From: Eledone cirrhosa
Taxonomy: Eukaryota
DNA length: 64,000 bases
Assembly (NCBI GenBank): GCA_964016885.1
Contig: OZ024741.1
Coordinates: forward strand, 200,818,001 to 200,882,000
Direction: 5' to 3'
The position numbers were made by a program, and so were the translations under genes. Below, piece by piece: positions 1,546-21,334 of this stretch (position 1 is the first letter of the stretch; every line of letters starts with the position of its first letter). A model generated the notes under the pieces. That model made no database searches, had not been told where the DNA came from, and worked only from the letters and a program-made list of their open reading frames with translations.

Positions 1546-3659
1546 ATATGTTTGCTCGATTAGAGCTAACCAAGGACCAATCAAGAGCACCAACAACAAC
1601 TAGACTGCATGTACCAATATTATAGATCTACAACATATATATGTGATGATAGCTGAAATAATACACACGTTTGTGCAGTAATTTATTTACGTTTACAGGT
1701 GATGACGTGATGACAACTTTTGTCATATCTCACAATTTACATTGTCTCAAAACTAATCAATCATAAACATTCATAGAAATTTATATTTCCGGAAGACTGA
1801 TCTCAGTAATACCGTGTAAATGATTGACACTAAATGCTGAGCAATCTTTCTCAACTTGTTCTACTGCTCCCCATCAAATAGACACATCCTATTTAAAAGA
1901 TCATCACTTTCCCTGTTGTAAGAAATAACAATTGTCTGTTCAGTGCTAAATTATCAACTGGCTTACCTGTCTCCTTTGTAATCTATATTTAATAGACTAC
2001 TCTCCTACTATTTTAGGCGTCGGTTGATAAATAAACACAAAGCTATTGATAATCTGGTGTGTGTGGTCCAGGAATCACGATATTAGCCAAATGAATCCTG
2101 CAGCGTACGTACATCAGTAAATTTCATGGGAAGGGGAATTAGTATTTTCTACAAACCGATCTTTTTATATACACGTCACCTCTTTCTTCTGTTTGAATCA
2201 GAGCAGTAGATGGTAATAGAATTGCGTATGTTTAGATCAGTGCGTCTTTAGAAAGACATTTATCCATTGTTTAAAATAAAAACCAAGTCATGGGAAGTAC
2301 GCAGTGATTTGATAAAGGAAGGGGAATAGTATTTTAACAGTTTACTGTAACAGACATTATTCTTGTAAAATAATGAAAATCACTGTCCTATTGACACGAT
2401 GATTATAAATTTCAGCCCGATCGCAGCAGTAGTACAAACAGCAGGTACAAGCAGGTCATGAATTCTACTTAAAATTTTTCACACTTGAGATCTGTCAAAT
2501 TAAGCTTTATTTCGCTTCACAAGGAAACAAAAATATTAACAACGCATAGAAATGACGTATTAAGAAAAGAAAAATGACTGGTTAAAAATGATGGGAACTA
2601 TCAACGTTGTTGGAATGGGTTATAAAGACCCATCTAACAAACGGGGTGGTATAAAACTGAATTGAGTCACCCGTATCTTGAAAGAAGAAAAACATAATAA
2701 ATAATCATTTAGGCTGAACGTAGACAGGTCTGTGTGATTATAGAGTTCACTTCTGAATCACGTGTTGTCGGTTTCGGTCTCAATGCCTGGCGCCTTGTGC
2801 TAGTGTTTTCTGTTATGTAAAGTTCGTCATACACATATAAAGAGAAGTGTGCTTATATGCGGAGATGCTATAAAATAGTTTATAAAATACGGTGAAAAAG
2901 CCTTAAAGACTGAAAAAAAGTGCGTATGTGCGCGAGCGTGTGTGTATATGAGCACACGTGCGTTTTTTGTGTTTATGTCAATGTTAAAATCGACACCGCT
3001 TAACAAACAGGTGCTGTCGTTTATATCTCGTAACATAGAGATTCGACAAAAAGAAAGCAGTAAAAAATAAGTCTATAAGTTGTTAACCCTGTGTGGTCGT
3101 AATCCAATGACTACATCTAGTAAAACAATATAGTCTAAGTAAAAACTGTGCTTTAACTTGTCTACATCCCAAGCAACAATATATTTTATTTATATTCTTC
3201 ATTCCTAGCAACGGGCACGGTTCCTATTGTTAGATTCTATACTTCTCACTGCAATTGAACTTATTCAATGCACCGATGTATTGGCAATGATTTAATGTTG
3301 AAACGACTATTTCTCCTATAACTGTTTTTTTTTTTTTAATGACATTTTTTGTTTAGATGTAGACATGAAATTGTCGAAAGATTACGAAGCTGGCTCTGTG
3401 ATATCTTGTCCATGTGACATTTTCCACAGCCTTGGGTCGAACAGTATATAATTCATAGAAAAATGAGAAAACGTTTCTATGAATTCAAATATACTCTCGC
3501 TTCGTCTCGATCAGATACTACAATGTTTATTCGTATATATATATATATATAAAAGGGTATGGATATTCCGACAAGCACTAAGTACCTACAGAACAGGTGA
3601 ATATTTAAATCGTTTTTTAATTTATTTAAAAGATTGTTTGATGATTACTTGTTCCGCTC

Positions 3660-7013: not shown

Positions 7014-8568
7014 ATTCCTCTTTCTCCTTCCACAACTCACTCCGCCAAAACGAGGCAACAACTTGTTTGTTTGGTTTTTTGTTCTTCATTCTGTAGAGAA
7101 TGAGAGAGAGGGGATGAGAGAGAGGAGATAAGAGAGAAAGAGAGGGGATGAGAGAGAGAGAGAGAAAGAGAGACAAAGAAAGAAAGAGGGGGGATTAGGG
7201 AAGAGAGAGAAAGAAAACAGAAAAATGATAGCATAGTTTGATAACTAACTTTTATTTATTTATTTTTTTAAACGCTTCTTAATTAACTCCTTTCTTAACT
7301 TTACTTCGCTTTCTCTCTCTCTTTCACAAAAGTCGTAATGACACTGTGTGTGTATGTGAGCATGTGTGTGTGCACGCGCGGGCGTGTGTCACGGCGTTCT
7401 TAAATTAGAGACATGTATGTGTGTGTGCGTTTATCACCGTACTTAAGTTAGAGACATATATATCCCAGTCTACTGTCTCATGTATATATATATATATATA
7501 TATATATGAAACAAAAAGTAAAGGTTGTATGTGACACCTCGATCTACTAGAAATATTAGCAAAATCCATTTCAAATCACAGCGAACAATCTGACACACAT
7601 ACACACACACACATGCATGTGTGTGTGTGTATGTCATGGAAGCCACTATAACTGTTGGTGTACCTAAAAGAAATAGAAAACAAATCTCCCTCAAACAAGA
7701 TCTTACTGCCATAGAGGTAAAAGTTGGTGAAAGCTACAATGTAAACATTGTGATTAACCCAGGCTCTGCCGCACTCTGGGTCAAGGAGCGTAAACTATCC
7801 AAATACCGGTCGCTCTCCGACAGGTTTGTTGTTGAGCCCGTAGCAATGGAGACTTCTGGTGTCCTTGGATCTAGGGCTACCTCCCAACCCACCACCATCG
7901 GCACAGAGTTGGCTACCGGCAGGGGTGAGCTTCGCAAGTCGGAATGGATTTTCCAGCGCTTCTCCCTCACCATCCTCTATTCCGACCGCCGGGGCTGCTG
8001 GACGGCCAGCGCGTGGGCCCCCATGTGCTCATAATAGTGAGTGATGGGTAGATCGATAGAGATGGAGGCAGTGACAGTGGATGTTTGGTTCCTGGTGTAT
8101 ATGAATATATTTACCACAATTATACACATTTAAATAAATTTTCATGAATTACAGAAAAGATTAAGTAAATTTTTCATTTATTCATAACCAATGGTAAATT
8201 TATTATTTTATTTTATTTAGCCTTCACATTTTGTTTGAATTGTAGAAGTTCTGATTGTGCATAAAAACAGGGATAAATAAAATCTAAATTTATTTTTTTG
8301 GTCATGCCCTTTTCACTGACAACGTACCTAATGATTCTTCCAAGTGCGAAGAATTATGTATGCTGACTGTAATAGGGAGCAGTATTAAAAAAAGTCACCA
8401 CTGGACAAAACTAATAATATTTTTATCTACATGATTTGCTTTAAACAAACGGCAATAAATATTCTGCTATAATTCCTGCTTTAGTTAAAATTCAGGAATC
8501 ATATTTCAATGGTCAAATATTGTAACTTTAATAAAATATACCGATGAATCACCGGGTAGCTCAGCTAG
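6812..8568 (+). mobile_element. Possible non-autonomous Helitron containing a CRE fragment
   Basis: 5' TCtactatacaaatcgcaatttctgtctatctgtgtgt start; 3' imperfect hairpin ccgatg-aat-caccgg then CTAG|T at 8565-8569. Linking the two ends is inferred. Confidence 0.4.
7760..8100 (+). mobile_element. CRE-clade retrotransposon RLE fragment with 3' UTR
   Basis: ORF 7621-8034 contains KERKLSKYRSLSDRFVVEPVAMETSGVLG...WIFQRFSL. Confidence 0.7.
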
Positions 8569-8584
8569 TGTATATATATATATG

Positions 8585-8705
<121 letters not shown>

Positions 8706-8941
8706 GTGTGTGTGTTTGTGTGTGTATGTATGTGTGTATATGTGTGTGTGTATGTATGATGTCAAATTGGTCTCTAGCATTACTGGCAATATGTAAATAA
8801 ATCAAACTGTCTTACGGTCGTTCGTTGGTGACTAAACTGACCACCCCAGCAAGCTTGCTTGGTGTGGAGGGTGTATGAATGCTTGTATTTATGTATATAT
8901 ATATATATAAATGTATGTACACACATGCACACACACACACC

Positions 8942-8978
<37 letters not shown>

Positions 8979-9136
8979 GAGGAGGTTATAGTTCACTTGA
9001 AGCATTGTGTAATGAGGTATAAACGTTAGAATATGTGTAATAAGGCCAAGACAATGCAGATATGGACATAGAAAAAGAATGCAATAGTGAGAGATATTGG
9101 TGAGAATTAGTCTTTCACCTTGAATTTATTTAAATG

Positions 9137-9173
9137 TCCTTAATTTTCGAGATAATATCTCTTCTTCGGAGGG
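9137..9173 (-). ncRNA. PLE pLTR minimal hammerhead (inverted copy)
   Basis: Reverse complement of the motif at 13470-13506. Confidence 0.7.
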
Positions 9174-9549
9174 AAGTAAAAGTCTCAGACCAGCGTCTAA
9201 ATTTCCAATGAAGCCATGCTGACCGGAAATAGTATAGAGTTCTAACTTTAATATCAAAGAATTAAAATTAGGTGGGTAAAGAGTAGTCTCCCTTTAAGAG
9301 GGGTTTGTTTATGTTTTTGTTGTGTTATGTAAATTTTATATGCGTGCCTGTATATGTGTGTGGGAGAAAGCATGAAGGTGTAGGTATGTGTGTGTGTGTG
9401 AGTGTGGGAAGATAGGTCTAATCGTAAAAGTGGGGGGTAGGTGTTATCTGGTGTTAGAACTGGTTTTGTGTGTGTATGTGTGAGAGAGAATAAGTGGGGG
9501 TGTGTGCGTGCGTGTGTGTGGGGTGTGTAAAGTGGGGCTAGAGGCCCTA

Positions 9550-11476
9550 TCAGGTTATAAATTGGGTGTTGAGCTCTAGTCTATTATTGATTGGTGGATG
9601 TGTTCTATCTATAATGAGTGCTTCCTTGATTCTAAGATTACCGAGGTTTCTTTCTTTAGTTTCTATCCTAACTGTTATGTTTTTATCAGTGTTTTTGCAT
9701 TTAACTAGGTGTTTCTTAAATGAGGAAGCGTTAGTATTGAGGTGTTCTTTTATTCTTATGTGGAGTGGTCTGGTGGTGCTACCTACGTAGAAGTTGTTGC
9801 ATTTGTCACACTCTAGTCTGTAAACTACGTAAGCCTGGTGGCATAGGTCTGTGTCGTTGATGGGGCAGTTGGCTAGTCTGCAGCAGTTGTCATGTCTGGT
9901 GGAGTGTCTCTTAGCTAGCCGTCCACGCAAAGAAGGACCCGAATGGGCCAGTTGAATATCCAGACCTTCTCGTCTGATGGCTCTGCGGATGGCTGTTGTT
10001 GTTTCTTCACTGAAGTGTGGGAGCTTCAGGAAGCAAGTGTTAGTGCCTCGGGTGTGGTGTCCTCTGTTCTTTCTGGCACGGTTTGTGGTGGATGTCGTGT
10101 ATCCGTTCAGTTTGAGTACTTCCAGGAAATGTGTGGTGTGTGTGTCTCGGTCTCTGGCGTCGGTGCATTTGTTCTTGATACGTGCCAGTTCGTTCTTTAT
10201 GTATCCGAACTTGGCACCGAGTGGGAGGGCCGATCTGAAATGTACGAACAGGTCCCTGCTGGCGGATTTTTTATAGAAGCAGGTGTGGATGTTGCCTTCC
10301 TCTGTTACCCTGAGTTGGAAGTCCAGCAGGGATAGGGATCCGCGGTCATCGGGGTGTTCAATGCTGAACTTTATACTGGCGTCCATGCTGGAGAATGTTG
10401 TGTATATTTTCTCTGCCTCTTCACGGGATGATGTAAGGATGAGTATGTCATCTACATATCGGGTGAAGAAGGTATGGGAATGGCAGGTGTTGAGGGCTCG
10501 GCATTCTAGCTGGTTCATGTAAGTGATGGCCAGCAGGCCAGAGAGGCTGGATCCCATGGGTAATCCTGTTGTCTGTCTGTATGTGTGGTGGTGGAAGGTG
10601 AAGTACGTGTTGTCTACCGTGAAGGACAAAAGTTGGTGTATGTCCGTCGGGTGGAGGCCGTAGCAGTGGATGTTCTCTGCGACCACGCAGTCCGTCAATA
10701 AATCGACAGCTGGGTGAGCGGGGACTGTAGTGTAGAGGGAGACAACGTCGAGGCTAAAAGCGTATTTATTAAGTTTAAGTTGTTCTGGCTGGAGTTGGTG
10801 TAATCTACGTATAACTTCGTCGGAGCTACTGACATGTCCGGGGAAGGTGGAGAGTAGAGGCTTGAGGACCTGGGAGAGAAGCCAGGAAATTTTGTATAGG
10901 GGTCCTTCTATGCTAGAGACGATGGGTCTTATATGCGTCTTAGTGCTATTCTTGTGGGTCTTGATGAGGTGGTAGAAAGTGGGCAGTCTGCTATTTCTAG
11001 TGGTGTAGTTGAGTTTAATTTTATTCGGGAGTTGTCTTCTCCTACAGATATCGAACCAAATGGAGTTGGTCTGTTTTTCGATTTGGGCTGCGGTCATGTC
11101 CGGGATCACTGTGTACAGTTCACTGTCGCTTAGGTGTTCGAAGGCTAGGTTATTGTATGTGGCTTGAGAGATGACGCAGAACTCTTTACCTTTGTCGGAT
11201 GGTAAGTAAATAAGTTCCTTATTCCGTAGGTTCTTCAGGGCGAGTTGTTGTGTCCTGGAGAGGTTAGGGGCCATCTTCTTCTGTTTCCGTAAGATGTTAA
11301 ATACGGAATGTTTTAGTCTCGAGAGTTTATCTTCCAGCTCGCGGTTGGCGGGCGGTGGATAGAGTGGGCGATCTAGTTGGTATATCGGGAATCTGGGTGT
11401 GGTGGATTCCGTGGTGTTGTTGTCGAGAGTCGATATCCATTTCAGTTGGTAGGCAGCTCGACAGAAATTCGTTTCT
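9550..11476 (-). pseudogene. 5'-truncated PLE RT + GIY-YIG ORF (inverted copy)
   Basis: ORF track 9550-11274 (574 aa) matches the C-terminal part of the 860-aa protein except A->T in HSHAFF; homology continues to the junction at 11476. Confidence 0.9.
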
Positions 11477-13093
11477 CAAGCCACATACAATAACCTAGCC
11501 TTCGAACACCTAAGCGACAGTGAACTGTACACAGTGATCCCGGACATGACCGCAGCCCAAATCGAAAAACAGACCAACTCCATTTGGTTCGATATCTGTA
11601 GGAGAAGACAACTCCCGAATAAAATTAAACTCAACTACACCACTAGAAATAGCAGACTGCCCACTTTCTACCACCTCATCAAGACCCACAAGAATAGCAC
11701 TAAGACGCATATAAGACCCATCGTCTCTAGCATAGAAGGACCCCTATACAAAATTTCCTGGCTTCTCTCCCAGGTCCTCAAGCCTCTACTCTCCACCTTC
11801 CCCGGACATGTCAGTAGCTCCGACGAAGTTATACGTAGATTACACCAACTCCAGCCAGAACAACTTAAACTTAATAAATACGCTTTTAGCCTCGACGTTG
11901 TCTCCCTCTACACTACAGTCCCCGCTCACCCAGCTGTCGATTTATTGACGGACTGCGTGGTCGCAGAGAACATCCACTGCTACGGCCTCCACCCGACGGA
12001 CATACACCAACTTTTGTCCTTCACGGTAGACAACACGTACTTCACCTTCCACCACCACACATACAGACAGACAACAGGATTACCCATGGGATCCAGCCTC
12101 TCTGGCCTGCTGGCCATCACTTACATGAACCAGCTAGAATGCCGAGCCCTCAACACCTGCCATTCCCATGCCTTCTTCACCCGATATGTAGATGACATAC
12201 TCATCCTTACATCATCCCGTGAAGAGGCAGAGAAAATATACACAACATTCTCCAGCATGGACGCCAGTATAAAGTTCAGCATTGAACACCCCGATGACCG
12301 CGGATCCCTATCCCTGCTGGACTTCCAACTCAGGGTAACAGAGGAAGGCAACATCCACACCTGCTTCTATAAAAAATCCGCCAGCAGGGACCTGTTCGTA
12401 CATTTCAGATCGGCCCTCCCACTCGGTGCCAAGTTCGGATACATAAAGAACGAACTGGCACGTATCAAGAACAAATGCACCGACGCCAGAGACCGAGACA
12501 CACACACCACACATTTCCTGGAAGTACTCAAACTGAACGGATACACGACATCCACCACAAACCGTGCCAGAAAGAACAGAGGACACCACACCCGAGGCAC
12601 TAACACTTGCTTCCTGAAGCTCCCACACTTCAGTGAAGAAACAACAACAGCCATCCGCAGAGCCATCAGACGAGAAGGTCTGGATATTCAACTGGCCCAT
12701 TCGGGTCCTTCTTTGCGTGGACGGCTAGCTAAGAGACACTCCACCAGACATGACAACTGCTGCAGACTAGCCAACTGCCCCATCAACGACACAGACCTAT
12801 GCCACCAGGCTTACGTAGTTTACAGACTAGAGTGTGACAAATGCAACAACTTCTACGTAGGTAGCACCACCAGACCACTCCACATAAGAATAAAAGAACA
12901 CCTCAATACTAACGCTTCCTCATTTAAGAAACACCTAGTTAAATGCAAAAACACTGATAAAAACATAACAGTTAGGATAGAAACTAAAGAAAGAAACCTC
13001 GGTAATCTTAGAATCAAGGAAGCACTCATTATAGATAGAACACATCCACCAATCAATAATAGACTAGAGCTCAACACCCAATTTATAACCTGA
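11474..13093 (+). pseudogene. 5'-truncated PLE RT + GIY-YIG ORF
   Basis: Starts mid-ORF just after the DKG motif (equivalent to 14601); ORF track 11534-13093, 519 aa. Confidence 0.9.
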
Positions 13094-13469
13094 TAGGGCC
13101 TCTAGCCCCACTTTACACACCCCACACACACGCACGCACACACCCCCACTTATTCTCTCTCACACATACACACACAAAACCAGTTCTAACACCAGATAAC
13201 ACCTACCCCCCACTTTTACGATTAGACCTATCTTCCCACACTCACACACACACACATACCTACACCTTCATGCTTTCTCCCACACACATATACAGGCACG
13301 CATATAAAATTTACATAACACAACAAAAACATAAACAAACCCCTCTTAAAGGGAGACTACTCTTTACCCACCTAATTTTAATTCTTTGATATTAAAGTTA
13401 GAACTCTATACTATTTCCGGTCAGCATGGCTTCATTGGAAATTTAGACGCTGGTCTGAGACTTTTACTT

Positions 13470-13506
13470 CCCTCCGAAGAAGAGATATTATCTCGAAAAT
13501 TAAGGA
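13470..13506 (+). ncRNA. PLE pLTR minimal hammerhead (C4 core variant)
   Basis: cct-CCGAAGA-a-gagat(att)atctc-GAAA-at-TA-agg; helix III reduced to the palindrome AATT. Confidence 0.7.
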
Positions 13507-13637
13507 CATTTAAATAAATTCAAGGTGAAAGACTAATTCTCACCAATATCTCTCACTATTGCATTCTTTTTCTATGTCCATATCTGCATTGTCTTGGCCT
13601 TATTACACATATTCTAACGTTTATACCTCATTACACA

Positions 13638-16220
13638 ATGCTTCAAGTGAACTATAACCTCCTCCTTTCATTACGCCTGAGCCAGGCCCAGTTCACAACT
13701 GTAAAGAAACTCTTCCAGCTATCTGAAAAGCGCGCCAAAGCCGGCTGCCAAATAAATTTCCTAAAACGATGCCTGAACAACAACATCATTCCCAAAACCA
13801 TCAAAAATTTACACCTACCAACATGCTTCAATTCACCAGGCCTCAAACGATCTCTCAGTTACATACAAAAATTCTGCCTAAGAAAACTCATACAACACCT
13901 ACACCGCACGCTACAACATCACATACGGACTATCTCCAGCCTTGTACCACAACTCGCTGAAACCCCAGAACCTCTGTCCAAGGTCATCTCCGCCACTATA
14001 GACAGGTCATACCACCACCGCCGAGACTACGAGAAAAAACGCCTAACACAAAAATTTCTCAAACTCAGGACGGCCAACTGTCTTAACAACATCCCAACGC
14101 CAAACACCAACAGAGGCGAACAATACGTTACCAACACCGAACCTAGCGGCACCCCGACCAACAACACACCTGACGCAAAACACCTCGTCACAGACTTGAC
14201 AGGATCCCTCTCCCGAGAGGAATTAGACCTCCTCAGCCTGGGTCCCAAGTTCATATTGAAACAGAGACTGGACGACAGACTATGGCTCGACATAGAAACG
14301 AATTTCTGTCGAGCTGCCTACCAACTGAAATGGATATCGACTCTCGACAACAACACCACGGAATCCACCACACCCAGATTCCCGATATACCAACTAGATC
14401 GCCCACTCTATCCACCGCCCGCCAACCGCGAGCTGGAAGATAAACTCTCGAGACTAAAACATTCCGTATTTAACATCTTACGGAAACAGAAGAAGATGGC
14501 CCCTAACCTCTCCAGGACACAACAACTCGCCCTGAAGAACCTACGGAATAAGGAACTTATTTACTTACCATCCGACAAAGGTAAAGAGTTCTGCGTCATC
14601 TCTCAAGCCACATACAATAACCTAGCCTTCGAACACCTAAGCGACAGTGAACTGTACACAGTGATCCCGGACATGACCGCAGCCCAAATCGAAAAACAGA
14701 CCAACTCCATTTGGTTCGATATCTGTAGGAGAAGACAACTCCCGAATAAAATTAAACTCAACTACACCACTAGAAATAGCAGACTGCCCACTTTCTACCA
14801 CCTCATCAAGACCCACAAGAATAGCACTAAGACGCATATAAGACCCATCGTCTCTAGCATAGAAGGACCCCTATACAAAATTTCCTGGCTTCTCTCCCAG
14901 GTCCTCAAGCCTCTACTCTCCACCTTCCCCGGACATGTCAGTAGCTCCGACGAAGTTATACGTAGATTACACCAACTCCAGCCAGAACAACTTAAACTTA
15001 ATAAATACGCTTTTAGCCTCGACGTTGTCTCCCTCTACACTACAGTCCCCGCTCACCCAGCTGTCGATTTATTGACGGACTGCGTGGTCGCAGAGAACAT
15101 CCACTGCTACGGCCTCCACCCGACGGACATACACCAACTTTTGTCCTTCACGGTAGACAACACGTACTTCACCTTCCACCACCACACATACAGACAGACA
15201 ACAGGATTACCCATGGGATCCAGCCTCTCTGGCCTGCTGGCCATCACTTACATGAACCAGCTAGAATGCCGAGCCCTCAACACCTGCCATTCCCATGCCT
15301 TCTTCACCCGATATGTAGATGACATACTCATCCTTACATCATCCCGTGAAGAGGCAGAGAAAATATACACAACATTCTCCAGCATGGACGCCAGTATAAA
15401 GTTCAGCATTGAACACCCCGATGACCGCGGATCCCTATCCCTGCTGGACTTCCAACTCAGGGTAACAGAGGAAGGCAACATCCACACCTGCTTCTATAAA
15501 AAATCCGCCAGCAGGGACCTGTTCGTACATTTCAGATCGGCCCTCCCACTCGGTGCCAAGTTCGGATACATAAAGAACGAACTGGCACGTATCAAGAACA
15601 AATGCACCGACGCCAGAGACCGAGACACACACACCACACATTTCCTGGAAGTACTCAAACTGAACGGATACACGACATCCACCACAAACCGTGCCAGAAA
15701 GAACAGAGGACACCACACCCGAGGCACTAACACTTGCTTCCTGAAGCTCCCACACTTCAGTGAAGAAACAACAACAGCCATCCGCAGAGCCATCAGACGA
15801 GAAGGTCTGGATATTCAACTGGCCCATTCGGGTCCTTCTTTGCGTGGACGGCTAGCTAAGAGACACTCCACCAGACATGACAACTGCTGCAGACTAGCCA
15901 ACTGCCCCATCAACGACACAGACCTATGCCACCAGGCTTACGTAGTTTACAGACTAGAGTGTGACAAATGCAACAACTTCTACGTAGGTAGCACCACCAG
16001 ACCACTCCACATAAGAATAAAAGTACACCTCAATACTAACGCTTCCTCATTTAAGAAACACCTAGTTAAATGCAAAAACACTGATAAAAACATAACAGTT
16101 AGGATAGAAACTAAAGAAAGAAACCTCGGTAATCTTAGAATCAAGGAAGCACTCATTATAGATAGAACACATCCACCAATCAATAATAGACTAGAGCTCA
16201 ACACCCAATTTATAACCTGA
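13638..16220 (+). CDS. PLE polyprotein, 860 aa: reverse transcriptase + GIY-YIG endonuclease (E->V variant in EN)
   Basis: FLKRC..NIIP N-terminal motif, PSDKG, RPIVS, SLDVVSLYT, GLPMGS, RYVDD, then Cys-rich linker and VVY..CxxC..YVGST..R..H...H...EAL..IN GIY-YIG with CCHH residues. Confidence 0.95.
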   Translation: MLQVNYNLLLSLRLSQAQFTTVKKLFQLSEKRAKAGCQINFLKRCLNNNIIPKTIKNLHLPTCFNSPGLKRSLSYIQKFCLRKLIQHLHRTLQHHIRTISSLVPQLAETPEPLSKVISATIDRSYHHRRDYEKKRLTQKFLKLRTANCLNNIPTPNTNRGEQYVTNTEPSGTPTNNTPDAKHLVTDLTGSLSREELDLLSLGPKFILKQRLDDRLWLDIETNFCRAAYQLKWISTLDNNTTESTTPRFPIYQLDRPLYPPPANRELEDKLSRLKHSVFNILRKQKKMAPNLSRTQQLALKNLRNKELIYLPSDKGKEFCVISQATYNNLAFEHLSDSELYTVIPDMTAAQIEKQTNSIWFDICRRRQLPNKIKLNYTTRNSRLPTFYHLIKTHKNSTKTHIRPIVSSIEGPLYKISWLLSQVLKPLLSTFPGHVSSSDEVIRRLHQLQPEQLKLNKYAFSLDVVSLYTTVPAHPAVDLLTDCVVAENIHCYGLHPTDIHQLLSFTVDNTYFTFHHHTYRQTTGLPMGSSLSGLLAITYMNQLECRALNTCHSHAFFTRYVDDILILTSSREEAEKIYTTFSSMDASIKFSIEHPDDRGSLSLLDFQLRVTEEGNIHTCFYKKSASRDLFVHFRSALPLGAKFGYIKNELARIKNKCTDARDRDTHTTHFLEVLKLNGYTTSTTNRARKNRGHHTRGTNTCFLKLPHFSEETTTAIRRAIRREGLDIQLAHSGPSLRGRLAKRHSTRHDNCCRLANCPINDTDLCHQAYVVYRLECDKCNNFYVGSTTRPLHIRIKVHLNTNASSFKKHLVKCKNTDKNITVRIETKERNLGNLRIKEALIIDRTHPPINNRLELNTQFIT

Positions 16221-16596
16221 TAGGGCCTCTAGCCCCACTTTACACACCCCACACACACGCACGCACACACCCCCACTTATTCTCTCTCACACATACACAC
16301 ACAAAACCAGTTCTAACACCAGATAACACCTACCCCCCACTTTTACGATTAGACCTATCTTCCCACACTCACACACACACACATACCTACACCTTCATGC
16401 TTTCTCCCACACACATATACAGGCACGCATATAAAATTTACATAACACAACAAAAACATAAACAAACCCCTCTTAAAGGGAGACTACTCTTTACCCACCT
16501 AATTTTAATTCTTTGATATTAAAGTTAGAACTCTATACTATTTCCGGTCAGCATGGCTTCATTGGAAATTTAGACGCTGGTCTGAGACTTTTACTT

Positions 16597-16633
16597 CCCT
16601 CCGAAGAAGAGATATTATCTCGAAAATTAAGGA
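16597..16633 (+). ncRNA. PLE pLTR minimal hammerhead
   Basis: Identical to 13470-13506, offset 3127. Confidence 0.7.
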
Positions 16634-16764
16634 CATTTAAATAAATTCAAGGTGAAAGACTAATTCTCACCAATATCTCTCACTATTGCATTCTTTTTCT
16701 ATGTCCATATCTGCATTGTCTTGGCCTTATTACACATATTCTAACGTTTATACCTCATTACACA

Positions 16765-19347
16765 ATGCTTCAAGTGAACTATAACCTCCTCCTTTCATTA
16801 CGCCTGAGCCAGGCCCAGTTCACAACTGTAAAGAAACTCTTCCAGCTATCTGAAAAGCGCGCCAAAGCCGGCTGCCAAATAAATTTCCTAAAACGATGCC
16901 TGAACAACAACATCATTCCCAAAACCATCAAAAATTTACACCTACCAACATGCTTCAATTCACCAGGCCTCAAACGATCTCTCAGTTACATACAAAAATT
17001 CTGCCTAAGAAAACTCATACAACACCTACACCGCACGCTACAACATCACATACGGACTATCTCCAGCCTTGTACCACAACTCGCTGAAACCCCAGAACCT
17101 CTGTCCAAGGTCATCTCCGCCACTATAGACAGGTCATACCACCACCGCCGAGACTACGAGAAAAAACGCCTAACACAAAAATTTCTCAAACTCAGGACGG
17201 CCAACTGTCTTAACAGCATCCCAACGCCAAACACCAACAGAGGCGAACAATACGTTACCAACACCGAACCTAGCGGCACCCCGACCAACAACACACCTGA
17301 CGCAAAACACCTCGTCACAGACTTGACAGGATCCCTCTCCCGAGAGGAATTAGACCTCCTCAGCCTGGGTCCCAAGTTCATATTGAAACAGAGACTGGAC
17401 GACAGACTATGGCTCGACATAGAAACGAATTTCTGTCGAGCTGCCTACCAACTGAAATGGATATCGACTCTCGACAACAACACCACGGAATCCACCACAC
17501 CCAGATTCCCGATATACCAACTAGATCGCCCACTCTATCCACCGCCCGCCAACCGCGAGCTGGAAGATAAACTCTCGAGACTAAAACATTCCGTATTTAA
17601 CATCCTACGGAAACAGAAGAAGATGGCCCCTAACCTCTCCAGGACACAACAACTCGCCCTGAAGAACCTACGGAATAAGGAACTTATTTACTTACCATCC
17701 GACAAAGGTAAAGAGTTCTGCGTCATCTCTCAAGCCACATACAATAACCTAGCCTTCGAACACCTAAGCGACAGTGAACTGTACACAGTGATCCCGGACA
17801 TGACCGCAGCCCAAATCGAAAAACAGACCAACTCCATTTGGTTCGATATCTGTAGGAGAAGACAACTCCCGAATAAAATTAAACTCAACTACACCACTAG
17901 AAATAGCAGACTGCCCACTTTCTACCACCTCATCAAGACCCACAAGAATAGCACTAAGACGCATATAAGACCCATCGTCTCTAGCATAGAAGGACCCCTA
18001 TACAAAATTTCCTGGCTTCTCTCCCAGGTCCTCAAGCCTCTACTCTCCACCTTCCCCGGACATGTCAGTAGCTCCGACGAAGTTATACGTAGATTACACC
18101 AACTCCAGCCAGAACAACTTAAACTTAATAAATACGCTTTTAGCCTCGACGTTGTCTCCCTCTACACTACAGTCCCCGCTCACCCAGCTGTCGATTTATT
18201 GACGGACTGCGTGGTCGCAGAGAACATCCACTGCTACGGCCTCCACCCGACGGACATACACCAACTTTTGTCCTTCACGGTAGACAACACGTACTTCACC
18301 TTCCACCACCACACATACAGACAGACAACAGGATTACCCATGGGATCCAGCCTCTCTGGCCTGCTGGCCATCACTTACATGAACCAGCTAGAATGCCGAG
18401 CCCTCAACACCTGCCATTCCCATGCCTTCTTCACCCGATATGTAGATGACATACTCATCCTTACATCATCCCGTGAAGAGGCAGAGAAAATATACACAAC
18501 ATTCTCCAGCATGGACGCCAGTATAAAGTTCAGCATTGAACACCCCGATGACCGCGGATCCCTATCCCTGCTGGACTTCCAACTCAGGGTAACAGAGGAA
18601 GGCAACATCCACACCTGCTTCTATAAAAAATCCGCCAGCAGGGACCTGTTCGTACATTTCAGATCGGCCCTCCCACTCGGTGCCAAGTTCGGATACATAA
18701 AGAACGAACTGGCACGTATCAAGAACAAATGCACCGACGCCAGAGACCGAGACACACACACCACACATTTCCTGGAAGTACTCAAACTGAACGGATACAC
18801 GACATCCACCACAAACCGTGCCAGAAAGAACAGAGGACACCACACCCGAGGCACTAACACTTGCTTCCTGAAGCTCCCACACTTCAGTGAAGAAACAACA
18901 ACAGCCATCCGCAGAGCCATCAGACGAGAAGGTCTGGATATTCAACTGGCCCATTCGGGTCCTTCTTTGCGTGGACGGCTAGCTAAGAGACACTCCACCA
19001 GACATGACAACTGCTGCAGACTAGCCAACTGCCCCATCAACGACACAGACCTATGCCACCAGGCTTACGTAGTTTACAGACTAGAGTGTGACAAATGCAA
19101 CAACTTCTACGTAGGTAGCACCACCAGACCACTCCACATAAGAATAAAAGAACACCTCAATACTAACGCTTCCTCATTTAAGAAACACCTAGTTAAATGC
19201 AAAAACACTGATAAAAACATAACAGTTAGGATAGAAACTAAAGAAAGAAACCTCGGTAATCTTAGAATCAAGGAAGCACTCATTATAGATAGAACACATC
19301 CACCAATCAATAATAGACTAGAGCTCAACACCCAATTTATAACCTGA
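16765..19347 (+). CDS. PLE polyprotein, 860 aa, intact RT + GIY-YIG
   Basis: Same motifs as 13638-16220; retains RIKEH; potentially active. Confidence 0.95.
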   Translation: MLQVNYNLLLSLRLSQAQFTTVKKLFQLSEKRAKAGCQINFLKRCLNNNIIPKTIKNLHLPTCFNSPGLKRSLSYIQKFCLRKLIQHLHRTLQHHIRTISSLVPQLAETPEPLSKVISATIDRSYHHRRDYEKKRLTQKFLKLRTANCLNSIPTPNTNRGEQYVTNTEPSGTPTNNTPDAKHLVTDLTGSLSREELDLLSLGPKFILKQRLDDRLWLDIETNFCRAAYQLKWISTLDNNTTESTTPRFPIYQLDRPLYPPPANRELEDKLSRLKHSVFNILRKQKKMAPNLSRTQQLALKNLRNKELIYLPSDKGKEFCVISQATYNNLAFEHLSDSELYTVIPDMTAAQIEKQTNSIWFDICRRRQLPNKIKLNYTTRNSRLPTFYHLIKTHKNSTKTHIRPIVSSIEGPLYKISWLLSQVLKPLLSTFPGHVSSSDEVIRRLHQLQPEQLKLNKYAFSLDVVSLYTTVPAHPAVDLLTDCVVAENIHCYGLHPTDIHQLLSFTVDNTYFTFHHHTYRQTTGLPMGSSLSGLLAITYMNQLECRALNTCHSHAFFTRYVDDILILTSSREEAEKIYTTFSSMDASIKFSIEHPDDRGSLSLLDFQLRVTEEGNIHTCFYKKSASRDLFVHFRSALPLGAKFGYIKNELARIKNKCTDARDRDTHTTHFLEVLKLNGYTTSTTNRARKNRGHHTRGTNTCFLKLPHFSEETTTAIRRAIRREGLDIQLAHSGPSLRGRLAKRHSTRHDNCCRLANCPINDTDLCHQAYVVYRLECDKCNNFYVGSTTRPLHIRIKEHLNTNASSFKKHLVKCKNTDKNITVRIETKERNLGNLRIKEALIIDRTHPPINNRLELNTQFIT

Positions 19348-19723
19348 TAGGGCCTCTAGCCCCACTTTACACACCCCACACACACGCACGCACACACCCC
19401 CACTTATTCTCTCTCACACATACACACACAAAACCAGTTCTAACACCAGATAACACCTACCCCCCACTTTTACGATTAGACCTATCTTCCCACACTCACA
19501 CACACACACATACCTACACCTTCATGCTTTCTCCCACACACATATACAGGCACGCATATAAAATTTACATAACACAACAAAAACATAAACAAACCCCTCT
19601 TAAAGGGAGACTACTCTTTACCCACCTAATTTTAATTCTTTGATATTAAAGTTAGAACTCTATACTATTTCCGGTCAGCATGGCTTCATTGGAAATTTAG
19701 ACGCTGGTCTGAGACTTTTACTT

Positions 19724-19760
19724 CCCTCCGAAGAAGAGATATTATCTCGAAAATTAAGGA
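19724..19760 (+). ncRNA. PLE pLTR minimal hammerhead
   Basis: Identical to 13470-13506, offset 6254. Confidence 0.7.
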
Positions 19761-19919
19761 CATTTAAATAAATTCAAGGTGAAAGACTAATTCTCACCAA
19801 TATCTCTCACTATTGCATTCTTTTTCTATGTCCATATCTGCATTGTCTTGGCCTTATTACACATATTCTAACGTTTATATATATATATATATATATCAAC
19901 ATACACACGCATATACATA

Positions 19920-20220
19920 TACATATGTACGTATGGGTTATATCGAACATTAATAATAATATTCGATTCGTTGTAAACAAACGGCCCAATTAAAGCTTTA
20001 CTGTGCCGATGACCAATCGTCATCCGTTTGTTCAACACTGGCATCGAGGAACAATCAACATGTTTCTGGGTCATTAGCCTTCATTAGGACTGTTTACCTC
20101 CCAGCGAATCTGTTGAACGGTTGAAAATATATAGTATTTTCTGAGGCATACATCGGCTGATTAGCCTCATTTGCATATTGGGCGAGTTACTGTTGGGACG
20201 AGAAATAAAATTCTAATTAT
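19920..20220 (-). mobile_element. Decayed retrozyme-like element with degenerate HHR
   Basis: Minus 20092->20052: cagtc-CTAATGA-aggctaatgaccca-GAAA-catg-TT-gattg; downstream cagtgttgaacaaa...acccatacgtac tail homologous to 37700-37826. Confidence 0.6.
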
Positions 20221-21334
20221 ATATATATAGTGTGTGTGCGTGTGTGACGAAGCTCAACGAATGGACACAACTTCAGTCGTTTTCTCACTCACACAATAAT
20301 CCAATTAAAGTCCGTATTATTAAAATTCAAATACAACTGGTTAGAATGCACGCATACGTTAATCAGTGAGGAAGATGACTTCGTGTGCGTATCATAATTG
20401 AGATACCCGGACCGATGCATTGGTTTCTACGATTCCAGTCTGCTGGCAGCGTACTTAGTGGAACAACCAGGTGCAGAAAATTAGGTAATGTTAGTATACA
20501 TTACATAATTTGGTGAGGAACCGTGTCGTCAGCGGGTGTTCGCCTCTCTGTAATGGAAAGTTTCATATGGCGTCCTAGTATATCACATTCCTGGTCGCAA
20601 GGGAATGTAGTAGCTTTCAACTTCTAGTGACGCGTGACGTAACACCAAACAGAAGATAAGCCAAGCCTGATCATTTAGTGACCACATGTTGGCAATTGAT
20701 TCAAATTGAAAAAATATTACCGTGCCAAAAGCATTCTACCACGGTGCTTTCATTTAGAAAACAAAGACTGGGTAGCAAACAATAAATAAATCGAATTAGA
20801 ATAAACAGAGTAAGAAAGTTCAACTTACAATTTAAATGCAGTTTAGTCCCTTGGTAATTAAAATATACCCTATAAGACATACATGTCAAGCTTAAGCCGT
20901 TTCGATAATGAATTTGAAAATTAAAATAAATTACTGTTTATTAATTTCTATCATTTACCATCTCGTCATGGAGAAGTAGATATACCTTAATATGTGAGAA
21001 GTCACATTGGAGACGTGGAAGAGGAAAGCAACAATAAAATTAAAAATGGAAATGGAACATTCAAATGTATCAATATACGTAGGCTGAGTTTAGAGCGTCT
21101 GTAGATATCAGTCTGATTAAAAGTTTTTTAGAGTCAAGGATAGAGAGTAGGGTACTGCCCCCTCCTTGTTTTTGGTGGTCACTTGTCAAGATTGTCTTTT
21201 ATGTGTCTGCGTAGCTCAGATGTCATATTTGCTAATGTATGCGTATCTTTATCTCAACAGACTTTTGTCTGTGTCTGTGTGTTTGTTCTGGCTGTTATAG
21301 TTAAGCCTGGCGTTATTATCATTTGATTAATAGG

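Follow-up and report, generated by a model that had tools for sequence, protein, structure and literature searches.

A window of 64,000 nucleotides from Eledone cirrhosa (contig OZ024741.1) contains a large insertion built entirely from copies of one Penelope-like element (PLE). The insertion spans window positions 8978 to 19879, 10,902 bp in total, and consists of a minus-sense arm followed by a plus-sense array with two intact open reading frames (ORFs; Table 1). We number the 3127-bp unit of the element from its ATG, u1 being window position 13638 and, one unit further on, 16765. On this scale the minus arm covers u657-u3127 plus u1-u28 (2499 bp), and the plus array covers u964-u3127, one full unit and then u1-u3115 (8406 bp, or 2.69 units).

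A repeat search of the window returned direct repeats at 3127 + 3127 bp spacing and three inverted pairs: 8978-11476 with 14294-16792 (2499 nt), 9018-11476 with 17421-19879, and 8978-11174 with 11469-13665, the last 5 nt of this third pair being a chance extension. When each base between 11474 and 16752 is compared with the base 3127 positions further on, only four mismatches appear, and the match collapses sharply beyond this range. Repeats as long (2-3 kb) and as similar (99.9-100% identity) as these do not arise by chance. The two arms meet head to head at the trinucleotide TCT (11474-11476), which is common to both as a 3-nt overlap of u657 with u964, with neither TA nor any other target sequence in between. 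At the left, the insertion ends at u28, and one extra nucleotide (8977) separates it from (AT)16; at the right, it ends at u3115 and passes into a TA run that reaches 19896. The first-pass annotation of this DNA had drawn the same anatomy. Its strict inverted arms (8978-11169 and 11474-13665), their 304-bp spacer and the shared tct were reproduced to the base, while its estimate of about 2.7 head-to-tail units with shared 544-bp inter-ORF regions became a measured 2.69 units with ORFs 544 bp apart. The ends it described, 28 nt into the ORF on the left and 12 nt short of the next ATG on the right, both in (TA)n, are the measured u28 and u3115.

Table 1. Coordinates of the insertion, its parts and the adjoining target remnants in the window
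Feature	Position	Strand	Remarks
(AT)16, left remnant of target microsatellite	8945..8976		adjoins one extra nucleotide at 8977
40-nt tail, u3116-u28, including ATG and first 28 nt of ORF	8978..9017	-	identical to 16753-16792; this end only
Inverted 5'-truncated arm, u657-u3127 plus u1-u28	8978..11476	-	inter-ORF region 9006-9549, ORF fragment 9550-11476
TCT joint, u657 of minus arm with u964 of plus arm	11474..11476		3-nt overlap
First plus-array unit, 5'-truncated, u964-u3127	11474..13637	+	ORF fragment to 13093; pseudo-LTR 13094-13637
ORF 1, intact, 860 aa, reverse transcriptase and predicted GIY-YIG endonuclease	13638..16220	+	private change u2387
Inter-ORF region (pseudo-LTR), 544 bp	16221..16764	+	probable RNA 5' end zone u2904-2935 at 16541-16572
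ORF 2, intact, 860 aa	16765..19347	+	private changes u452, u841
Terminal pseudo-LTR to u3115, tail-less end	19348..19879	+	last 4 nt (TATA) overlap TA run
Right remnant of (TA)n target	19880..19896		TA run

The target is a compound TA/CA microsatellite, and a target-site duplication is therefore unreadable. A (TA)67 run with TG/CA-rich microsatellites also lies at 8571-8705, 270 bp to the left of the insertion.

In a Pfam domain search of the 860-residue translation, RVT_1 covered residues 396-591 with E 4.9e-16, and GIY-YIG covered residues 768-846 with E 1e-4 and 23 bits (cut-off 22.6). In precomputed Pfam annotation its homologues have PF00078 and, in many cases, PF01541 too. A reverse transcriptase and a GIY-YIG domain together in one ORF mark the element as an endonuclease-bearing (EN+) PLE. 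Motifs read by eye from the translation, and named after the available text of Craig et al. (2021; PMC8557442), include VVYRLECDKCNNFYVG...H...H of the CCHH type, the two cysteines of which lie between GIY and YIG, SDKGKEF for DKG and LGPKFIL for GxKF (the GxKF/Y motif). By these sequence features the element classes as a C-terminal EN+ PLE with a (TA)n target. The Hydra clade, which has no CCHH and carries DKT in place of DKG, was considered and ruled out, since the Eledone ORF has both the CCHH-type cysteines and DKG. By the available text of the same study (PMC8557442), the (TA)n target of the Eledone element fits the linker-bearing PLE clades, among them Neptune and Nematis. However, the cysteine cluster ahead of the nuclease, NCCRLANCPINDTDLCH, is spaced CC-x4-C-x7-C, unlike the CX2-5CxxC of the Neptune/Nematis linker. 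The best database hit shares 55% identity with the 860-residue query across 69% of its length; no other exceeds 43%, most are unnamed, and homology thus points to no particular clade. Among PDB sequences the 860-residue protein had no match at E<=0.01.

The unit differs from a canonical EN+ element in one further respect. The available text of Craig et al. (PMC8557442) gives canonical hammerhead ribozymes as universal in the C-terminal EN+ clades outside Naiad/Chlamys. Rfam searches found no hammerhead at E<=1 in 8000-21000 or at E<=10 in 16200-17000, and the core motifs (CTGATGA, or CTGANGA followed by GAAA) are absent from either strand of one unit and its flanks. The hammerhead core is thus the sole defining feature, among those tested, that the Eledone unit lacks. 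The matches that Rfam did return in 8000-21000 were microRNA models lying on TA/CA microsatellites, which we judged to be chance. According to the first-pass annotation, one cDNA had gone several times round a circular or multimeric RNA. Repeated passage of the unit boundary stands, as the plus array crosses two boundaries; a ribozyme-made circular RNA as the template is not supported, there being no hammerhead core anywhere in the unit.

The four pieces of the insertion differ at only four unit positions, and each odd base is private to one piece. In other family copies these private bases were counted in 0/13 (u452), 0/15 (u841), 0/24 (u1660) and 1/44 (u2387) cases. The ORFs differ at three of these positions, and two of the changes alter a residue: u2387, which places V at residue 796 of ORF 1 and E in ORF 2, and u452, which places S at residue 151 of ORF 2 and N in ORF 1. 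The u841 change in ORF 2 is silent, and both frames are open. All four differences are private derived singletons, fitting a single event and youth. The family as a whole is very young and abundant, with insertions that are nearly unmutated. At a sister locus, L061 (C4:233388238-233396549), another young complex insertion is 99.9% identical and has partial tandems on its two arms (1.27 and 1.38 units), one tail end and one tail-less end; its 3 private differences in 8.3 kb give a density similar to that of the window (4 in 10.9 kb). Both arms of L061 carry a rare A at u612, a base seen in 2/13 sampled copies and once more in an older copy, which agrees with a shared source lineage for the two arms. 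Its use as the mark of one single RNA molecule was dropped, because that third, older copy carries it too.

Beyond this genome, a sequencing run from another species (X5) contains the family at approximately 96% identity, with 21 differences over 597 nt (window 11378-12099), and under five further species labels 10-12% of sampled words matched. The family or close relatives are thus not confined to the Eledone cirrhosa genome.

The inter-ORF region has more than 2000 candidate family matches in the 3.0-Gb assembly. The tail-less end, u3115 followed by the TA repeat, was matched exactly 326 times and its reversed control never (0); u28 followed by one nucleotide and (AT)4 gave 454 against 0, a pattern that misses the commonest form of the tail end. 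The 40 nt between u3115 and u28 correspond to the published PLE tail, and both end types adjoin (TA)n. No end was found at approximately u118-123 beside (TA)n, the mark of priming at the putative RNA 3' end (0 matches).

To see how the two end types are combined, we took 30 tail-less ends in chromosome order and 30 tail ends as a reverse sample. Among the tail-less ends, 12 have a visible partner, which ends at u28 in 12/12; a further 3 have a partner that runs off the stretch, 8 have none and 7 were unresolved. Three of these last seven, followed on 10-kb stretches, have a u28 partner in 3/3. The tail ends gave 11 visible partners (all u3115, one u3117), 5 off the stretch, 5 without a partner and 9 unresolved, and additional tail-selected loci had a tail-less partner in 5/5 cases, plus 3/3 large loci. 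The resulting table of pairs (15 and 0 in one row, 0 and 19 in the other) has a Fisher P of 5e-10, with one insertion (L042 = L094) counted from both sides. Altogether, 35/35 double-ended insertions, including the window and an array of 344-bp units described below, have one u28 end and one u3115 end. The comparison with other family copies that the first-pass annotation had proposed thus finds its two-end geometry at 34 other loci. Moreover, the inverted partner directly adjoins in the 15 of 23 resolved tail-less ends that are double-ended, which makes the window geometry the majority form of the family.

The two ends also differ in their precision. Among loci L009-L060, the tail end has between CCTCCTCC and the AT repeat a stretch of 0-4 additional nucleotides (none, C, CC, T, TT or TCCC), whereas the tail-less end is fixed at the TATA common to element and target. 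Given this ragged end on one side and fixed end on the other, tail and tail-less ends seem to start by different chemistry. The rule that every double-ended insertion has one end of each kind would in turn point to an ordered or asymmetric two-step process.

These observations bear on a stepwise origin, in which independent insertions of opposite orientation enter the same (TA)n, the array grows by unequal crossing-over, or both. The premise is reasonable in so far as the family strongly prefers (TA)n as its target, adjacent separate insertions are seen at L048, L076 and L088, and unequal exchange can extend any tandem, the four variants allowing one early gain of a unit. Independent insertions, however, would not be expected to pair tail with tail-less ends as strictly as observed, or to place the inverted partner so often in direct contact, and in the window neither TA nor other target DNA separates the arms. 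Since no two units of the array have a derived variant in common, unequal exchange after mutation has left no sign, although four sites give this comparison low power. Nor can exchange create the first partial tandem, and partial tandems occur at many loci with varied truncation points, on both arms in two of them. We consider a stepwise origin unlikely.

A different class of explanation derives one arm from the other. In the self-priming or fold-back idea, the 3' end of one cDNA (or of an antisense transcript) would snap back and the second arm would be copied from the first; the available text of Arkhipova et al. (2013; PMC3846280) proposes it from palindromes at the inverted junction. We compared arm lengths in the 34 pairs in which both arms were measured. 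The tail-less arm extends further 5' than its partner in 21 pairs; in 9 it is the tail arm that does so, and in 4 the two are equal to within 3 nt. Because either arm can be the longer, neither is copied from the other; a copied arm cannot outgrow its template. The plus array of the window, although 3.4 times the length of the inverted arm, does not end in the 40-nt tail that the inverted arm carries, and both arms must therefore have been copied from RNA. The window joint, u657 against u964, is not palindromic. The pairs with equal starts, such as L016 (u1950/1950), L030 (u2247/2247) and L054 (u2993/2993), are what fold-back would produce, but they are also expected from two cDNAs running off one RNA 5' end. 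Indeed, 28 of 64 resolved arm starts cluster at u2890-2935 (window 13400-13445 and 16527-16572), in a sample that sees only starts within approximately 1.2 kb of the 3' end. Taken together, the unvarying presence of one tail per double-ended insertion and the free variation in arm length argue for priming by both target strands over the older self-priming idea, which we regard as very unlikely.

At other loci the inner joints show 0-4-nt overlaps or short fillers, as expected from end joining of two cDNA 3' ends, and the 3-nt overlap of the window falls within this range, although it is not significant alone.

Given the pairing of ends and the behavior of the arms, we think it likely that the window block is one young PLE insertion that arose in a single event, with reverse transcription primed from both strands of the cut target. 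A nuclease, probably a dimer, would cut both strands of (TA)n. The 3'-OH of the left top strand would then prime cDNA synthesis at u28, without homology and leaving one extra nucleotide, while the 3'-OH of the right bottom strand would prime at u3115, where the RNA would read UAUA. The left cDNA would halt after 2.5 kb and the right one would run for 8.4 kb. To cross two unit boundaries, the right cDNA would have jumped back to the repeated end region, on the same RNA molecule or on a different one, or followed a transcript longer than one unit. Finally, the two cDNA 3' ends would anneal through 3 nt and host repair would fill in the rest. Priming by both strands of one cut (TA)n at nearby template positions, as the first-pass annotation had it, accords with the same end pair in 35 insertions and with the 40 nt that separate the two outward 3' ends of the window insertion on the template (u28 and u3115). 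That reading, which goes on to join the two 5' ends, is also favored by the 3-nt overlap at the inner joint and by the finding that either arm can be the longer.

How the right cDNA came to pass the unit boundary twice is a separate question. The cluster of arm starts at u2890-2935 probably marks the usual RNA 5' end, that is, the transcription start in the pseudo-LTR. Full-length copies start at u2918-2942, and most family copies are pieces of approximately 200 bp that extend from this cluster to the start sites of reverse transcription. An 8.4-kb cDNA passes the usual RNA 5' end twice, so that either a longer RNA or a template switch is needed. An exact 31-mer across the junction of pseudo-LTR and ORF has 56 matches in the assembly, 18 of them in the 344-bp array and 38 in 33 loci. 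Two junctions on the same strand occur in only 2 of these 33 loci, the window and an older copy at C2:47.16 Mb (96% identical), in line with the earlier remark that multi-unit arrays are less common. A third candidate for a multi-junction array, C1:3113, was rejected because it has one junction only, in 1.94 units. We lean slightly toward switching during reverse transcription as the source of the extra units; a read-through RNA, from a source that may be missing from the assembly, or a later gain of a unit may account for them instead.

Several observations weigh against a single event primed by both strands, or against parts of it. The one-of-each rule for the ends is not explained by in vitro work on an Anolis PLE, in which start sites did not differ between top and bottom strands (Frangieh et al. 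2024; PMC11167929). The predicted RNA fold around the start sites (16725-16900) is no better than that of shuffled sequences (z = -0.25). A source with three same-strand junctions, as read-through would need, was not found among the 56 exact 31-mer matches, a search that misses a source absent from the assembly or with a mutated 31-mer. The four private variants are compatible with one whole unit having been gained later by unequal exchange. The count of 2.69 units is known from the assembly alone, and none of the short contigs (60-120 nt; runs X1-X3 and X5) that fall on 10900-12100 bridges the joint at 11474-11476; loose ends of contigs at 11476 continue the element sequence.

This last point leaves room for an assembly artefact, either a mis-joined inverted junction or a number of units expanded by the assembler, and the available text of Craig et al. 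(PMC8557442) notes that tandem and inverted PLE structures trouble assemblies. Yet the same geometry recurs at 34 other loci with differing truncation points, and the insertion has two defined end types that both adjoin (TA)n. Each unit also has its own private variant, and the units are therefore not collapsed or duplicated reads. An artefact of this kind is very unlikely.

A second array in the family is built from a much smaller unit. At L069:2947-9676 (C4:15418947-15425676), 344-bp mini-units composed of u2904-3127 and u1-122, with no ORF, are arranged head to head. Approximately 16 units of the minus arm end tail-less at u3115, 3.3 units of the plus arm end with the tail at u29, and (TA)n flanks both sides. 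At the u122/u2904 joint, one position varies irregularly between A and T, with T in 8/16 minus-arm units and A in 3/3 plus-arm units. This irregular dimorphism means that a single circular template does not fit the 344-bp array. No second array of this type was found by exact 31-mer search.

The two arrays can be accommodated in one wider reading, to which we give somewhat less than even weight. Each integration would use the two start sites, 40 nt apart, once each and one per strand, an obligate asymmetry that could come from an asymmetric dimer or from an ordered first- and second-strand process. Arrays (2.69 x 3127 bp in the window; 16 + 3 x 344 bp at L069) would arise by repeated template switching on RNA that starts near u2904, rather than from longer master arrays or ribozyme-made circles. 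If this is true, the window array, with its two complete same-strand junctions of pseudo-LTR and ORF, would alone among the young loci of the assembly be capable of supplying a full-length template in which the start signal is internal.

Among known systems, the nearest are the EN+ PLEs themselves. The available text of Craig et al. (PMC8557442) describes a layout of three elements, namely a partial tandem, a copy that is inverted and truncated at its 5' end, and a tail of 30-40 bp that is often confined to one end. The window insertion has this layout, and that text leaves the mechanism open. With the elements in the available texts of PMC8557442 and PMC3846280 it shares the pseudo-LTR partial tandem with an inverted 5'-truncated copy on the 5' side, the one-sided 40-nt tail including the ORF start, the (TA)n target and the frequent 5' truncation. 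Against most loci of its own family, the window insertion stands out by having more units (2.69) and two complete ORFs. It has the layout of a standard textbook EN+ PLE insertion and is not a new kind of element; the array is uncommon in size only.

In the twin priming of L1, which Ostertag and Kazazian are said to have described in 2001, the second target strand reportedly primes on the element RNA and a microhomology join leaves an inverted 5' part. There the second primer is said to anneal internally, the two pieces then being different parts of one RNA with nothing duplicated, whereas in Eledone both cDNAs would start from the 3' region and 2.2 kb are present in both orientations.

Tandem multi-unit arrays are also a feature of non-LTR retrozymes, which are tandem hammerhead repeats for which a non-autonomous origin from PLEs has been proposed (Li, Clavereau and Pollet 2026, bioRxiv 10.64898/2026.07.22.740005, in its available text). 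Like the Eledone arrays, they are head-to-tail and related to PLE pseudo-LTRs. The available text defines them, however, by a hammerhead and a circular RNA stage, whereas the Eledone family has no hammerhead core. The 344-bp array looks, by its sequence, like a hammerhead-less counterpart of a retrozyme, a non-autonomous derivative of the family. Tandem arrays without a hammerhead suggest that the ribozyme is not needed for tandem formation.

The mechanism itself is best compared with PAc, a Poseidon element of Anolis carolinensis (Frangieh et al. 2024; PMC11167929). The purified Anolis protein cleaves and extends both target strands in vitro and initiates reverse transcription at two neighboring internal positions, one tail length apart; a multi-copy mRNA was proposed as the template. 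Priming by both strands, as we read it in the window, is therefore the published PLE model, and the likeness extends to the two adjacent internal starts and the AT-rich target. The systems differ in that PAc starts 111-118 nt inside the ORF, whereas the Eledone element starts at -12 and +28 around the ATG, and in that PAc has a working hammerhead, whereas none is seen here (PMC11167929). The third difference is that the starts of PAc in vitro show no strand bias, whereas each Eledone insertion uses each site once (PMC11167929). With two start sites, the use of both strands, microhomology joining and concatemer formation all readable from its copies, the Eledone family offers a clean genome-wide in vivo record of PLE integration steps whose definition in vitro, in the first such PLE system, has only just begun.

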